From Shigella phage Ag3, in sequence record FJ373894: DNA of 64,000 bases; one strand, given 5' to 3'. The translations under genes were made by a program, and so were the position numbers. Under the pieces are notes generated by a model. That model was not told where the DNA came from, did not search any database, and saw only the letters and a program-made list of their open reading frames with translations. Positions 7,436 to 12,890 of this stretch are shown here, in pieces (position 1 is the stretch's first letter; each line of letters starts with the position of its first letter).

Positions 7436-7924
7436 ATGATGCTGTTAATGAGCGTTCCACAGAACAAGATGACCCCTGAAACAGAGGGTAAGAATCACTT
7501 CAACATCTACAGCCAGAGCCAAACGGAACTCGGGCGCTTCCTCTCGCATTTTGCCCATCATCCAGTGACTACCTATGAGCACGGCGTGTTCAACTCCATG
7601 GAAGGCTACTGGTATTGGCTAAAGTACAGGGATGACAACCTGCGCTTGCTCGACGGCTACGAAGCCAAGCAATATGGGCAGGGGTTGGCGGCCACTCGCA
7701 TCGCTGTCCTTGATCCATCATCCGAAGAATTCAAGCGCGACATTCTGTTTGCCACCAGCATGAAACTCCAGACAATGCCCGACCTGCTGAAGATCAGATT
7801 GGCGTACAGTCGACTCCCTCTGATCCATGCATACGTTCGGAACGGGAAATATAGTTTTCAAAACTCTATGGACTTTATCATAGACCACATTAATCGTCTC
7901 CGCATACAAGGAACTTTGAAATGA
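7436..7924 (+). CDS. NADAR-domain (YbiA-like) protein, putative ADP-ribose/N-glycoside hydrolase
   Basis: Segment IYSQSQTELGRFLSHFAHHPVTTYEHGVFNSMEGYWYWLKY matches the YbiA/NADAR core pattern (FYS.S..G.FSNF...P.....G..F.SxEhYFQ..KF) recalled from E. coli YbiA; about 162 aa, typical domain size. Confidence 0.5.
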   Translation: MMLLMSVPQNKMTPETEGKNHFNIYSQSQTELGRFLSHFAHHPVTTYEHGVFNSMEGYWYWLKYRDDNLRLLDGYEAKQYGQGLAATRIAVLDPSSEEFKRDILFATSMKLQTMPDLLKIRLAYSRLPLIHAYVRNGKYSFQNSMDFIIDHINRLRIQGTLK

Positions 7925-8502
7925 AATTTCTACATACCATCATTGGCACTTCTTATGATTGCACTGCTCATTGCCCTGACCGTTCGTCTGTGTTCGTCCT
8001 AGGTAAACTGGTAGAAGAATTGTGTGAGCTGTCTGATGTCTACAATGGCCTGGCGGCGTCGGAACCCCTGAACGGTGAAATCGCTGATGTTATCATCTCT
8101 GCGATTGATTTGCTATATGTCGTGGAGTTTAACCCTCACCAAATCAATGGTTGCATGAACAAGGAAGAAATGATCGATTCTGTTATCTTCCGTCTTGCAG
8201 AATTGGGGGCGACAGAATCAAAAGATGTGGAGAGCCACTGGTTCCATGTGGGTGATCTGAAACCGGAGAAGCATCTGGCGCTGGCCTTGCACTATCTAGG
8301 CAGAACAACCCGCCTTTTGAACCAACCATACCGTTCAGAAGACGATCTGGCGTACCTGGTGGACAGGATCATCACCTTCGCGGCCAAAATGGCTTGCGCT
8401 GTTGGCATCGTCAACTCTGTGTCTCAGTCGGACACGCGAGTGAAGGTGGAACACGCTATTGAACACAAAGTTGAAAAGTGGCGCACTAAATTTGGTCTAT
8501 AA
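7921..8502 (+). CDS. putative MazG-like nucleotide pyrophosphohydrolase
   Basis: 193 aa; ATGA overlap with upstream gene; acidic helix pattern LGKLVEELCELSD...GEIADVIISAIDLL resembles MazG-type EExxE motifs; weak. Confidence 0.3.
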   Translation: MKFLHTIIGTSYDCTAHCPDRSSVFVLGKLVEELCELSDVYNGLAASEPLNGEIADVIISAIDLLYVVEFNPHQINGCMNKEEMIDSVIFRLAELGATESKDVESHWFHVGDLKPEKHLALALHYLGRTTRLLNQPYRSEDDLAYLVDRIITFAAKMACAVGIVNSVSQSDTRVKVEHAIEHKVEKWRTKFGL

Positions 8503-8551
8503 CCCAAGCCCATACATAATCTTGTGTGTTTACCATTGACGGGATAGACCG

Positions 8552-10465
8552 ATGTCTGATAAAATTGATATTGAACGCAAGTACAAGAAGCTCACGCACG
8601 TCGAGCATATCCTCCTTCGCCCAGAGCGTCATCTGGGCAGCATCCGTTCGTCTGTTGGTACGGTGTGGGTGTACGACCCAACCAAAGACCAAGTCATTTT
8701 CCGTGACAACTTTGAGTACTCCCCCGCCCTGATCAAACAGTTTGATGAAATCATCACCAACTGTGTTGACCACAGCAAGACGCCTGAGGGTAAATCCCTG
8801 ACGGAAATCACTGTCACGGTTTCCCCGATGAACGGTCAAATCATCGTTGCCGACAACGGGGGCATCCCTGTTGTGAAGCACGGTGTTACCAACGAGTGGT
8901 TGCCTGAGATGCTCTTCGGCTCCCTGTATGCAGGCAGCAACTTCAACGACGAAGACGAAGAGTACAACAACCAGAAGTCTGGTGGCCAGAACGGTGAAGG
9001 GGCTTCGCTCGTCAACGTGTTCTCCAAATGGTTCCGTGTTGCTACCAGTGATGGCAAGAAGTCTTATGCCCAGCTGTTTGAAGACAACATGAGCAAGAAG
9101 TCTAATCCGGTCATCAGCAATACGCCGAAAGAGTTCGGCACCACCATCGCCTGGATTCCTGACTATGCTCGCCTGGGTGTCAAAGGGCTTGACCAGAACA
9201 ACCTGCTGATGATCTATCGCCGCGCGTTTGAAGTGGCTGCGTGTAACCCGCGCCTGAAGGTTGTGCTGAACGGGAAGCAAATCCGGATTGACCGCTTTGG
9301 TCACTTCGTTGATTACTTCCATGCTGGTTCCGCTGTTGATGAATCTGGTGAATGGTCGGTTGCTGTAGCCCCTTCATCCGGTACGTTCATGCACGCATCA
9401 TACGTGAACTCTATTGCCACCCACATCGGTGGTCCTCACGTTGATTATGTCGCCGACCAGATCGTGGCTGCGATTCGTCCTCAGCTGGTGAAGAAGTTCA
9501 AGACCGAGCTGAAACCTGCCGTGATCAAGAACCACATGTCCTTGTTCATCGCCGCCGACATCAACAACCCGCGCTTTGACAGCCAGACCAAGGAGCGCAT
9601 GACCACTCCTGTAAGCCAGTTCGGTACGTCGTACAAACCGAGTGACAAACTCATCCGCAAGGCGCTTGAGTTCGTTATGGCTGGTCTGAGCAAAGAACTG
9701 GCTTCCCTGCGCAATGAGCAGGATGATGCTGAGTTTGAAAAGGCCAAGAAGGATATCAGCAAGCGGGATTATCGTGAGATTGAGAAGTATTACCCGGCGA
9801 CCGCCCGTGGTGACCGCAGCGGATGCTCCCTGTTGCTGACAGAGGGTGATAGCGCCTCCAATCCTATCCTGAACGCCCGTGACACCAAAAAGATCGGATT
9901 GTTCCCGCTTCGTGGTAAGTTCATCAACTGCCTGAACGCCCCGCGCACAAAGGTGATGAACAATGAAGAGTTCAAGAACCTGTGTACGATTCACGGCGGC
10001 GCAGTGCCCGGTCAGCCACTTGACATCAGCCGCTACCCACAGACTGTTGTGGCTACCGATGCGGACGATGACGGCATTCACATCCGTGGGTTGTTGATCA
10101 CCCTGTATTGCACCTACTGGCCGGAGTACGTCCGTCAGGGCAGGCTGAAGCTCCTGCGCACCCCTTACATGCGTGTATGGTGTGGTAAGGTGATGCATGA
10201 GTTCATGAACAACGCCGAGTATGAGGAGTTCCTGAAGACGCCTGATGCCAAGAAGATCACGAAGAAGAAATATCTGAAAGGTCTTGGCGGTAACAGCACT
10301 GAAGACTTCAAACGTATTCTAAACAACCTGGATGCGTATACTACGACGGTCACGCTGGACGATGGCTACCAACAGTCACTGAAGAATGGCTTCGGTGATG
10401 AGGCCGCCGATTACCGCAAAACCTGGTTTAGCGATGTTTGCCTGTTTGAAACTGAGGATGAATAA
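8552..10465 (+). CDS. DNA topoisomerase II large subunit (T4 gp39 plus gp60 equivalent, fused), GHKL ATPase plus TOPRIM
   Basis: 637 aa; GyrB-like ATPase motifs (NCVDHS, IVADNGGIP, GGQNGEGAS) and TOPRIM EGDSASNP; size fits fused gp39/gp60. Confidence 0.9.
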   Translation: MSDKIDIERKYKKLTHVEHILLRPERHLGSIRSSVGTVWVYDPTKDQVIFRDNFEYSPALIKQFDEIITNCVDHSKTPEGKSLTEITVTVSPMNGQIIVADNGGIPVVKHGVTNEWLPEMLFGSLYAGSNFNDEDEEYNNQKSGGQNGEGASLVNVFSKWFRVATSDGKKSYAQLFEDNMSKKSNPVISNTPKEFGTTIAWIPDYARLGVKGLDQNNLLMIYRRAFEVAACNPRLKVVLNGKQIRIDRFGHFVDYFHAGSAVDESGEWSVAVAPSSGTFMHASYVNSIATHIGGPHVDYVADQIVAAIRPQLVKKFKTELKPAVIKNHMSLFIAADINNPRFDSQTKERMTTPVSQFGTSYKPSDKLIRKALEFVMAGLSKELASLRNEQDDAEFEKAKKDISKRDYREIEKYYPATARGDRSGCSLLLTEGDSASNPILNARDTKKIGLFPLRGKFINCLNAPRTKVMNNEEFKNLCTIHGGAVPGQPLDISRYPQTVVATDADDDGIHIRGLLITLYCTYWPEYVRQGRLKLLRTPYMRVWCGKVMHEFMNNAEYEEFLKTPDAKKITKKKYLKGLGGNSTEDFKRILNNLDAYTTTVTLDDGYQQSLKNGFGDEAADYRKTWFSDVCLFETEDE

Positions 10466-10466
10466 G

Positions 10467-10913
10467 ATGGAATACCCGCTAACTCATCAAATGCAGCCAA
10501 CAAAAGACACGTGCATGTCAACGTGTCTGGCGATGTTGCTTGGTCGCCCGGTTGCTGAGGTTGCTGAAACATGGCATGAAAGTTTCGCAAATTGGGAAAC
10601 CACGATTGGTGACGTTCTTTGTATGGAAGGGGTTCCGTTCTTGTGTGGGAAGGGAGTCAACCAAACTGTCACCATCTATCATGATTATGTCTACCTTCTT
10701 TGCGTGCCAAGTCCAGCAACGCCAGGGATATTGCATCAGATCATTATGGATACCCGAGGCGACAAAGTTGTCATACATGACCCACTGAAGGGTACTGGCA
10801 AAAGATATTACACCCTAGATGAAGACGACAAATCTCCTCTGGCGGTAAAACTTGAAACTTGGATTGTAGACTACATTGTCGACCCGTATGAAGTGGGAGG
10901 TTATCGTGGGTAA
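10467..10913 (+). CDS. putative papain-like (C39-like) cysteine peptidase domain protein
   Basis: 148 aa from ATG 10467, one base after the topo stop; N-terminal Q-x5-D-T-C-x-S-T-C-L-A-M-L-L-G resembles the C39 catalytic Cys motif; downstream His candidates (GILHQII, VVIHDP). Confidence 0.4.
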   Translation: MEYPLTHQMQPTKDTCMSTCLAMLLGRPVAEVAETWHESFANWETTIGDVLCMEGVPFLCGKGVNQTVTIYHDYVYLLCVPSPATPGILHQIIMDTRGDKVVIHDPLKGTGKRYYTLDEDDKSPLAVKLETWIVDYIVDPYEVGGYRG

Positions 10914-10914
10914 G

Positions 10915-12246
10915 ATGGTTGCCAAGAGCATTACTGTAACGGACTTTGTCAACACTGACCATAAGCAGTTTTCTGTGGTCAACAGCATCCGTCAAATCCC
11001 TCAGCTGATTGACAGCCTCAAGCCGAGCCAGCGCAAGATCCTTTTCGCTGCTCTTGAGTACAACAAGGAGGAGATCGTTGACCGCCTTGGTATGTTCGCC
11101 GCCGCCCGGACCAACTACAAGTCTGGTGGTGAGAACATGAGCGGCACTATCGTGAACATGGCTCAGGGGTTCCCAGGCACGAACAACATCCCATACTTTG
11201 ACCGCGATGGCCAGTTTGGTTCTATCATGGGGCGCGACGCGTCGTCGGCACGTTACATTTCGGTGGCTGTATCTGATGTTATCCGCAAGATCTTCCGCAA
11301 GGAGGATGAGGGCATTTTAGAATACAATTACCTTGGTGAAGAAAGACTGGAGCCGAAGTTCTTCCTGCCCATCCTACCCATGTTCCTGGTGAATGGGATC
11401 AATGGTATCGGCACCGGATATTCCACCGACACCCCGTGTCATTGCGTTAAGTCCGTGCTCAGTGCCCTGAGAGCGCTTCTCCGTGGCGAAGACCCGAAAG
11501 ACTTAAAACCGTACTGGAACGGCTACAAAGGGGAGACAGGCTATACTGAGGAAGGAAGAGCATACAGTCGCGGCATCTTCCGTCGCGTCAATGCCACCAC
11601 CCTGCATATCACCGAAGTCCCAGTGGGTTGGTTCGCCAAGACCTATGAGACCAAGGTGTTGCTGCCTCTGTACAAGGCTGGTATCCTGACCGAGTACGCC
11701 AACGACACGACCGAAGATGGCTGGGATATCACGGTTGTATTCAAGCGGGGTGAACTCTCTAAGCTGAGTGATGAACAGGTTGAGCAGATGTTCAAGTTGT
11801 ACTCTGCTAACAAGCCTGTTTGGACAGCATGGGATGAAGACGGGGTAATCCATCGTTATGCGGGCTGGCAGGATATGTTGCTGCCGTTCTTCAATTATCG
11901 CCTGTCGCGGTATGAAGATCGTCGCCAGTATCTGTTGAAGGACATGGCAGACAGGATCCGCAAGCTGGGTGACCGGGCGGTGTTCATTGAATGGGCGACG
12001 CGTGTTGATCTCCGCCAAAAGATTGACGTGCTGAAGTCTCTGTTCATGCAGGACTATCCGGACTTTGGCGGTGATCTTGACGAGTTGTTCAAGATGCCGC
12101 TGTCGTCTATTACTCTGGACGCCCGTGAGCGCCTACTCAAGCAGATTGAGAACCTTGAAGCACAACACAAGGAATTAAGTAAGAAAGAGGACATCGATCT
12201 TTACACTGAAGACCTTGATGACCTTGAAAAGGCTCTTGGCCTATAA
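10915..12246 (+). CDS. DNA topoisomerase II medium subunit (T4 gp52-like, GyrA-type cleavage-religation)
   Basis: 443 aa from ATG 10915 (GGAGG upstream); GyrA-like N-terminus with SQRKILFAALE and active-site region SSARYISVAV. Confidence 0.85.
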   Translation: MVAKSITVTDFVNTDHKQFSVVNSIRQIPQLIDSLKPSQRKILFAALEYNKEEIVDRLGMFAAARTNYKSGGENMSGTIVNMAQGFPGTNNIPYFDRDGQFGSIMGRDASSARYISVAVSDVIRKIFRKEDEGILEYNYLGEERLEPKFFLPILPMFLVNGINGIGTGYSTDTPCHCVKSVLSALRALLRGEDPKDLKPYWNGYKGETGYTEEGRAYSRGIFRRVNATTLHITEVPVGWFAKTYETKVLLPLYKAGILTEYANDTTEDGWDITVVFKRGELSKLSDEQVEQMFKLYSANKPVWTAWDEDGVIHRYAGWQDMLLPFFNYRLSRYEDRRQYLLKDMADRIRKLGDRAVFIEWATRVDLRQKIDVLKSLFMQDYPDFGGDLDELFKMPLSSITLDARERLLKQIENLEAQHKELSKKEDIDLYTEDLDDLEKALGL

Positions 12247-12288: not shown

Positions 12289-12576
12289 ATGTTCTATCTC
12301 CGTTCTGCGGCACCTGTGGTATTCATCATTTTCCTATTTGATTTCCTGGTTCCTCGCTTTATCAAAGAAGAGGTGGCGTTTGGTCTCTATGGTGAGACGG
12401 AAGACCCAGAGGTCGATGAATATTACCCAATGTGCGCCCTGAAAGATATCGAGGAAGGAGAAGATGTTGCAATGGTCGGCACCATGCGTTCTTTCAACCT
12501 GTTTGGGCTTGCACTCTTTCCGAAGCTGGTTGGTGAATTGCGCCCATACGATCCTGATGCTACTGTAGAGGGTTGA
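12289..12576 (+). CDS. hypothetical protein
   Basis: 95 aa; GAGGG RBS; hydrophobic N-terminus. Confidence 0.4.
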   Translation: MFYLRSAAPVVFIIFLFDFLVPRFIKEEVAFGLYGETEDPEVDEYYPMCALKDIEEGEDVAMVGTMRSFNLFGLALFPKLVGELRPYDPDATVEG

Positions 12577-12578
12577 CC

Positions 12579-12890
12579 ATGTCACAGCTTCTGAGTCCTA
12601 AACTTCTGTCTATGGGTGATTCCCTGTATTTTCACTGCCCTGGATGTGATATGCTTCACCCATATCGCGTGAAGGGTGATGCCCAAGGTCCGATGTGGTC
12701 GTGGAACAACAATGTCGTTGCTCCTACGTTCACGCCGAGCCTGCTGGTGGATGCATCTGATCCAGCATCACGTTGCCATCTGTTCCTGACCGACGGCAAA
12801 ATACAATTCCTCGGCGACTGTTTCCATGATCTGAAGAACCAGACAGTGGATATGGTCGACATCCCTGAACCTGAAATTTGGATTGAATAG
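12579..12890 (+). CDS. hypothetical protein with putative zinc-binding Cys/His cluster
   Basis: 103 aa from ATG 12579 (GAGGG upstream); CPGCDMLH ... CHLF ... CFH. Confidence 0.4.
   Translation: MSQLLSPKLLSMGDSLYFHCPGCDMLHPYRVKGDAQGPMWSWNNNVVAPTFTPSLLVDASDPASRCHLFLTDGKIQFLGDCFHDLKNQTVDMVDIPEPEIWIE

Follow-up and report, generated by a model that had tools for sequence, protein, structure and literature searches.

A predicted C39-like cysteine peptidase gene carried as an accessory cassette between the topoisomerase II genes of a Shigella phage

Why should a gene for what looks like a small cysteine peptidase lie between the genes encoding two subunits of a phage topoisomerase II? The question is raised by a stretch of 64,000 nucleotides (the window, in what follows), presented as DNA of Shigella phage Ag3 (FJ373894), whose sequence is that of the first 64 kb of record OL615011.1, Shigella phage vB_SboS_Gloob (Ackermannviridae, Aglimvirinae, Agtrevirus). 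Coordinates are those of the latter record, and "Gloob" in the comparisons below stands for the window. The open reading frame (ORF) at issue, a member of the protein family phrog_4049, very probably encodes a divergent and probably active C39-like cysteine peptidase, judging from a structural model and profile alignments. The gene is almost certainly accessory, carried on a 448-bp cassette (a short repeat at its boundary being counted once), and not a component of the topoisomerase. Its position beside the topoisomerase genes is best understood as a slot for insertion and expression, not as a sign of shared function. The fold and the chemistry are already known; what is new is the optional, mobile cassette at a hot spot for homing endonucleases and the membership of its gene in a phage-wide family.

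The reading frame and its predicted active site

An ORF of 148 amino acids, wedged between the topoisomerase II subunit genes with gaps of one nucleotide, had been claimed by the initial annotation, and the sequence agrees exactly. The ORF begins with ATG at 10467-10469 and ends with TAA at 10911-10913 (the stop lying inside the coordinates in Table 1), and a single nucleotide separates it on one side from the stop of the large-subunit gene (TAA, 10463-10465) and on the other from the ATG of the medium-subunit gene (10915-10917). In the GenBank record, the coding sequence of the peptidase (GLOOB_10, 10386-10913) begins at an upstream ATG, at 10386, and overlaps the large-subunit gene by 80 nucleotides, and that of the medium subunit (GLOOB_11, 10876-12246) begins at a TTG, at 10876, and overlaps the cassette. 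Both deposited starts appear, from comparison with related genes, to be too far upstream. The peptidase start is placed at 10467 because of the alignments of homologues and the curated starts in Kuttervirus Marshall and CRW-SP2, and the medium-subunit start is placed at the ATG at 10915 and not at the TTG because relatives, including those free of the cassette, begin at the equivalent ATG. The Shine-Dalgarno-like GAGGA ahead of the cassette ORF is the one that serves the medium-subunit gene in cassette-free relatives.

Table 1. Features at and around the junction of the topoisomerase II genes
Feature	Position	Strand	Basis or remark
Large subunit of topoisomerase II (637 amino acids; GHKL ATPase and Toprim)	8552..10465	+	Pfam DNA_gyraseB, Toprim, TOPRIM_C, HATPase_c
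Shine-Dalgarno-like GAGGA for the cassette ORF	10453..10457	+	Read from the sequence; 10 nucleotides upstream of the ATG
8-bp direct repeat TAAGATGG, left copy (stop of the large-subunit gene, G, ATG, G)	10463..10470		Cassette boundary
C39-like cysteine peptidase ORF (predicted), stand-alone, phrog_4049 member	10467..10913	+	ORF calls, phrog_4049 match, model, dN/dS
Gln10 codon, predicted oxyanion-hole residue (Q-x5-C)	10494..10496	+	213/213 conserved; aligns with LahT150 Q21, equivalent to StbD-CT Gln177
Cys16 codon, predicted catalytic nucleophile	10512..10514	+	212/213 conserved; aligns with LahT150 catalytic C27
His90 codon, predicted general base	10734..10736	+	218/218 invariant; aligns with LahT150 and Cpe1 His in profile alignments
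Asp105-Pro106 codons, the C39 "DP" signature with the predicted third catalytic residue	10779..10784	+	217/217 each
8-bp direct repeat TAAGATGG, right copy (stop of the cassette ORF, G, ATG of the medium-subunit gene, G)	10911..10918		Cassette boundary
Topoisomerase II medium subunit, GyrA/ParC-like, 443 amino acids	10915..12246	+	PF00521 (DNA_topoisoIV), E 4.9e-65

The ORF is evidently a real gene and not a chance frame, since it matches the phrog_4049 hidden Markov model (HMM) over its full length (E 4.5e-53, with residues 4-142 aligned to positions 2-142 of the 145 in the profile), since its homologues are widespread, and since the ratio of nonsynonymous to synonymous substitution rates (dN/dS) is low: 0.078 at a dS of 0.36, in a comparison of the Gloob allele with that of Kuttervirus Se-J (91.4% nucleotide identity). 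The gene is under purifying selection. Homologues were found by tblastn in 151 phage records, and HMMER, run against the representatives of 1.84 billion clusters, found 719 clusters at 50% identity with E<=1e-3, 375 of them with E<=1e-10, nearly all representing stand-alone proteins of 135-160 amino acids. No second copy of the peptidase is present in the 64-kb window. A terminator-like hairpin on the minus strand (8-bp stem, with a T-run) lies at 10505-10528, inside the region encoding the catalytic-Cys motif; it is probably a chance match, no minus-strand gene being evident there.

The assignment to the papain superfamily, also put forward by the initial annotation, is supported by structure prediction, by profile alignment, and by the near invariance of four residues. 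An AlphaFold2 model made from 78 homologues (mean predicted local distance difference test score 91.4, predicted template modelling score 0.88) has the alpha+beta papain fold, in which Cys16 begins a helix (16-25) and His90 begins a strand (89-95), the hallmark of papain. The best fold matches of the model are C39 domains, with PCAT1 at the top of the Foldseek results, and a fold search of BFVD returned uncharacterised family members only. The alignment by hhalign of a 128-sequence family profile with the LahT150 fragment (probability 76%, E 2.3e-5, 94 columns) pairs Q10, C16, H90, and D105-P106 with Q21, C27, and the His and Asp-Pro of LahT150, and the D105-P106 pair aligns as well with the DP of Cpe1, PeiR, and PfhB2. 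When family profiles were compared with PDB sequences, PeiR, Cpe1 (9l5u), LahT150 (6mpz), and PfhB2 appeared at E 0.05-0.5, all on the same motifs. Searches of PADLOC, NCBIfam, and PDB sequences gave no significant match to the peptidase. Matches to Peptidase_C39 (PF03412) were weak and below threshold, seen in 10 of the 78 homologues (best E 0.0028), and some database records carry the automatic labels "Peptidase C39 domain-containing protein" or "ABC-type bacteriocin transporter peptidase domain". Because it falls below the Pfam thresholds and has no transporter context, the protein is filed here as C39-like and not as a member of the C39 family.

The residues themselves (their conservation counted in a family alignment of 218 sequences) occur in the order Gln, Cys, His, Asp (Q-x5-C ... 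H-x14-17-D), with Q-x5-C ... H-x14-DP in the ORF, which corresponds to the Gln177, Cys183, His258, and Asp275 of StbD-CT (see below). The N-terminal C39-like motif that had been noticed at the outset, HQMQPTKDTCMSTCLAMLLG (Q-x5-...), is present, but in a different register: the conserved Gln is Q10 rather than Q8, and the conserved nucleophile is C16 rather than C20, which is found in 195 of 217 sequences and replaced by Ser in 17. Among the downstream His residues put forward as candidates, only H90 is invariant. The protein retains the catalytic Cys and so is not a dead C39-like domain such as that of HlyB. It has no transmembrane or other hydrophobic segment and no signal-like N-terminus, and therefore the peptidase should be cytoplasmic.

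An optional cassette at the topoisomerase gene junction

How regularly is the gene found at this place? A megablast search with the ORF and its 700-bp flanks found 270 Ackermannviridae records that match the flanks, only 8 of which contain the Gloob allele. Most of the matching records align in two pieces, with a span in the record of 1399 bp, exactly 448 bp less than that of the query. When alleles of any kind are counted, by protein identity, about 37 of the approximately 270-274 records with the flanking topoisomerase genes have a cassette (roughly 14%), leaving about 86% without. In Dickeya phage phiD3, Kuttervirus Sa157lw, Klebsiella phage HMGUkp5, and Agtrevirus P46FS4, the topoisomerase genes abut with a spacer of one nucleotide, and the family HMM has no match in phiD3, Sa157lw, HMGUkp5, or Vibrio phage BX-1. 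The slot is filled, in contrast, in Kuttervirus Marshall and in CRW-SP2, as it is in Gloob. Absence from close relatives had been named beforehand as something that would speak against the peptidase; for most Ackermannviridae absence is literally what is found, but it shows the gene to be accessory, not unreal.

The limits of the cassette can be read by comparison with P46FS4: the flanks of the two phages are 98.6% identical, and Gloob differs by an exact insertion of 448 bp. The empty site in P46FS4 and in HMGUkp5 reads ...GAGGATGAATAAGATGGTTGCC..., with one copy of the 8-bp repeat. In Gloob, the left junction reads ...GAATAAGATGG and continues across the boundary with AATACC, and the right junction reads GGGTAAGATGG and continues with TTGCC, so that a copy of TAAGATGG at each end of the cassette restores the stop-G-ATG coupling signal. 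The GC content of the cassette is 46.8%, as against 52.5% and 51.9% in the flanking genes.

These observations bear on the early suggestion that the gene is a remnant of an inserted element. Inserted it is, given the exact presence or absence of 448 bp, but it is no remnant, the frame being intact and dN/dS as low as given above. They bear also on the related thought that the cassette is a selfish or decaying passenger, without function for the phage. Most relatives do without the cassette, and the junction is used as well by homing endonucleases (see below), as one might expect of a passenger; selection on the sequence, the near invariance of the catalytic tetrad across 218 diverse sequences, and the translational-coupling signals kept at both junctions make this the case only with extreme improbability.

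The cassette has moved between genera. Up to a distance of 80 bp or less from the ORF, the flanks in Gloob resemble those of P46FS4; the cassette, in contrast, has 88-97% identity to its counterpart in Kuttervirus Se-J, and therefore the recombination tracts involved in this movement must have been very short. Also, the peptidase alleles of Gloob and Marshall (a Kuttervirus, of another subfamily) are only about 60% identical, as compared to 96.7% identity between the large subunits (Marshall L002:3074-4987). Judged by such sequence comparisons, the topoisomerase region suggests mosaic recombination. The large subunit of Gloob (8552-10465) is only 92.4% identical in protein sequence to that of phiD3 (L015:1101-2999), a Limestonevirus of the same subfamily.

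The topoisomerase gene junction of Ackermannviridae is a hot spot that has received insertions repeatedly. In Salmonella phage KE28 (Kuttervirus; L020:996-1697) the same junction holds a 233-amino-acid GIY-YIG homing-endonuclease gene, and in Dickeya phage RC-2014 (Limestonevirus; L021:1000-1580) it holds an insert of about 570 bp with a short HNH endonuclease ORF. Additional evidence that the region draws mobile endonuclease genes comes from phiD3, where an HNH homing-endonuclease gene (L015:278-1108) lies directly upstream of the large-subunit gene and a segB-like gene (L015:7143-7329) a few kb downstream.

What the location does offer the gene is probably expression. No terminator-like site was found on the plus strand within 8552-12246, and a promoter-like site (8536-8565) lies ahead of the large-subunit gene, and therefore genes inserted at the junction should share the transcript of the topoisomerase genes. 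The cassette gene would thus be co-transcribed with the topoisomerase (DNA-replication) operon and is probably coupled to it in translation. Such tight coupling to replication genes of the phage in Gloob, together with the practice of canonical C39 enzymes of cutting off leader peptides, might lead one to suppose that the peptidase processes a phage protein, for example a precursor with a Gly-Gly-type leader or a subunit of the topoisomerase. We consider this unlikely, inasmuch as the gene is dispensable in most Ackermannviridae with near-identical topoisomerases and no neighbour conserved across lineages presents itself as the cognate substrate.

A functional tie to the phage topoisomerase, as a property of the family, was considered and rejected. 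In most Ackermannviridae (about 86%, as noted above) the cassette is missing although the topoisomerase genes are the same. The phage large subunit has LYAGSNF in its ATP lid, in place of the LHAGGKF of GyrB and ParE, whether or not the phage carries the cassette, so that the motif does not co-vary with it. Outside the Ackermannviridae, phage Seurat has the peptidase gene, but neither its annotation nor tblastn shows a type IIA topoisomerase.

The same facts tell against a more particular and more inviting tie. Cpe1, an effector of a type VI secretion system, is a C39-type toxin that cuts at G101|G102 in GyrB and at G97|G98 in ParE, within the LHAGGKF of the ATP lid, causing the collapse of supercoiling (PMC12136450). 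StbD-CT, a C39-type toxin of a contact-dependent inhibition system, makes the same cuts in GyrB and ParE with the same collapse, and its Gln177, Cys183, His258, and Asp275 were shown by mutagenesis (bioRxiv 10.64898/2026.05.07.723447). Perhaps, then, the phage peptidase cuts GyrB or ParE of the host between the glycines of LHAGGKF, and the flanking T4-type topoisomerase II of the phage, whose LYAGSNF lacks Gly-Gly, takes over. That two independently characterised C39 toxins act on GyrB and ParE lends the idea some appeal, as does the place of the gene in Ackermannviridae between topoisomerase genes, and Cpe1 is the top match to the family profile in PDB, albeit a non-significant one (E 0.21). 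The family is, however, no nearer to Cpe1 than to the C39 domains of transporters (hhalign probability for Cpe1, 51% over 20 columns; for LahT, 76% over 94), so that a special kinship to Cpe1 is unsupported. The constancy of LYAGSNF with or without the cassette implies no co-adaptation, and in most carriers the peptidase gene is remote from any topoisomerase gene. Even resistance of the phage enzyme is no foregone conclusion, as StbD-CT still cleaves GyrB variants with a single G-to-S change and AGS is thus no guarantee (bioRxiv 10.64898/2026.05.07.723447). All told, an exchange of topoisomerases of this sort seems improbable.

Possible substrates and roles

If the structural model is a reliable guide, Gln10 would form the oxyanion hole and Cys16 would serve as the nucleophile, with His90 and Asp105 completing the catalytic centre. 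The protein would then belong to the C39-like branch of the papain superfamily (clan CA), as a cysteine endopeptidase or isopeptidase that is small, soluble, and cytoplasmic. By analogy with every characterised C39 enzyme, cleavage would most likely take place at a Gly-Gly-type (small-residue) site. The substrate is most likely a protein of the host and the role that of host takeover or counter-defence, a proposal made because of the patchy and horizontally exchanged distribution of the gene, the rapid divergence of its alleles, and the company it keeps of small uncharacterised ORFs. That the enzyme is active, that it prefers such a site, that the gene is expressed early, and that the target belongs to the host are inferred. 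The composite picture, of an active cytoplasmic C39-like peptidase with a Gly-Gly-type preference, aimed at a host protein and encoded by a mobile cassette, is the one toward which we lean, if only slightly.

The family is widely distributed. Members occur in Queuovirinae (Seurat, 9g, and Vibrio phage BP15), in Vequintavirinae (Mydovirus BIS47 and Henunavirus Hena1), in the Pseudomonas phages SM1 (Samunavirus) and PMBT14 (Knuthellervirus), in the jumbo Erwinia phage pEa_SNUABM_5, in a T4-like contig, and in assorted metagenomic phage contigs. Outside Ackermannviridae, the gene lies almost always within runs of small, co-directional, unannotated ORFs, Seurat included.

In three siphoviruses the gene also has lysis genes nearby. 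It lies 0.1-2.3 kb from the genes for holin, endolysin, and spanin in Seurat (L005:2980-5733), 9g (L007:2983-6043), and PMBT14 (L010:3067-4408), and in PMBT14 it comes directly after the holin gene and one further ORF. These contexts, and the similarity to PeiR, might signify an envelope isopeptidase that aids lysis in the manner of the pseudomurein endoisopeptidases PeiP, PeiW, and PeiR, reaching the wall through holin lesions. Against this, the protein has no wall-binding domain, and no signal or transmembrane segment. The copies in Ackermannviridae, the T4-like phage, Mydovirus, and Samunavirus lie among replication genes or small ORFs, not lysis genes, and the lineages of Seurat, 9g, and PMBT14 are probably related, making their contexts not independent. 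There is accordingly little probability in a role at the envelope.

A further alternative is a deconjugase directed against host immunity. The peptidase might be an isopeptidase that removes conjugates ending in Gly, whether of ubiquitin-like proteins or of CD-NTases (cGAS/DncV-like nucleotidyltransferases), and so counteract defences of the Bil/Bub type or type II CBASS (cyclic oligonucleotide-based antiphage signalling system), a deubiquitinase of the phage, so to speak. C39 enzymes recognize Gly-Gly, and an accessory, patchy, and fast-diverging distribution (alleles at about 60% identity beside large subunits at about 97%) is typical of counter-defence genes. But similarity to deubiquitinase families is weaker than similarity to C39 domains, and neither a link in the literature nor a PADLOC or anti-defence match was found. 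This specific form of counter-defence is thus unlikely.

Several observations weigh against the composite picture itself, of a host-directed C39-like peptidase. At the level of sequence families, the match to Peptidase_C39_2 (PF13529) reaches 13.2 bits as against a gathering cut-off of 24 (E 0.13) and covers residues 2-26 only, and the Gly-Gly specificity is extrapolated from relatives of 10-16% identity. At the level of gene context, when the ORFs within 3 kb at 11 loci were all compared with one another by BLASTP, no conserved neighbour, substrate, or immunity gene emerged: the ORFs shared were the family itself and the lysis genes of Seurat, 9g, and PMBT14, and the proximity of the latter could mean a different role. 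The status of "early gene" in other lineages rests on the appearance of gene arrays only. Domain fusions are rare (zinc ribbons, a YunG-like domain, one MazG-like N-terminus) and give no informative pointer to a substrate. Finally, no characterised member of the family, enzymatic or genetic, was found in the literature, and the lack of a PADLOC or known anti-defence match counts here as well.

One fusion recalls a gene near the cassette. Protein P0184 (metagenomic, 272 amino acids) joins to its C39-like domain an N-terminal domain homologous to gp8 of the window (30% identity over 81 amino acids, pairwise E 5e-6); the fusion could be genuine or an artefact of gene calling. The gene for gp8 (GLOOB_8, 7921-8502) is annotated "viral tegument-like protein", and its product has no Pfam match; its counterpart in HMGUkp5 is annotated as a MazG-like pyrophosphatase. 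Downstream of the topoisomerase genes, GLOOB_13 (12573-12890, 105 amino acids) is annotated "putative anaerobic dehydrogenase" and matches Pfam DUF6527 (E 2.3e-13), so the deposited product name looks unfounded.

Hardly any phage-encoded protease is known to have a host protein as its target. It is this that gives interest to phrog_4049, a large phage family with an intact predicted C39-type active site that extends across Ackermannviridae, Queuovirinae, Vequintavirinae, and T4-like, Pseudomonas, Vibrio, and jumbo phages. That the Gloob protein is an effector of a topoisomerase exchange or, more broadly, that phrog_4049 is the first family of phage cysteine proteases to cleave specific host proteins (housekeeping or immune) in the service of takeover or counter-defence, would be the most consequential outcome and is a long shot. 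The discovery of Cpe1 and StbD-CT nonetheless supplies one concrete hypothesis, cleavage of gyrase or topoisomerase IV, that is cheap to test, and Gloob and P46FS4, a natural pair differing by the 448-bp cassette, provide a ready comparison in the search for function or substrate. Even if the protein proves to be a minor accessory peptidase, two start-codon annotations have been corrected, and the topoisomerase junction has been documented as an insertion hot spot in Ackermannviridae.

Comparison with known systems

The family to which this ORF belongs, phrog_4049, is listed in PHROGs v4 under "unknown function". As an insertion, the cassette resembles those of homing endonucleases in its use of the same topoisomerase junction and in its patchy presence among close relatives. 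It differs in that it codes for a peptidase rather than a nuclease, and it shows no evident means of moving by itself; homologous recombination through the conserved flanks is enough to account for its movement.

As a protein, it may be set beside three groups of enzymes. The C39 domains of peptidase-containing ATP-binding cassette (ABC) transporters (PCAT1, ComA, LahT; MEROPS C39, PF03412) share 10-16% identity with it, below Pfam cut-offs. Unlike those systems, the phage protein stands alone, with no ABC transporter and no adjacent gene for a peptide with a Gly-Gly leader. PeiR, PeiW, and PeiP (MEROPS C71), from phages and prophages of methanogens, bind the wall by repeats at the N-terminus and have archaeal pseudomurein as their substrate, whereas the protein considered here consists of the catalytic domain only and is found in phages of Gram-negative hosts.

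The third group comprises the toxins Cpe1 and StbD-CT. The phage protein differs from them in having no delivery domain (PAAR, CdiA, or entry) and no adjacent immunity gene, its flanks being subunits of topoisomerase; moreover, the toxins have no specific sequence relation to the phage family, most carriers of which lack the topoisomerase context. In other respects they are alike, sharing the same fold and catalytic residues (predicted, in the case of the phage protein) and a thematic link to type II topoisomerases. The toxins do their work in the cytoplasm of the cell under attack, where their targets are housekeeping proteins and not the precursors of secreted peptides.

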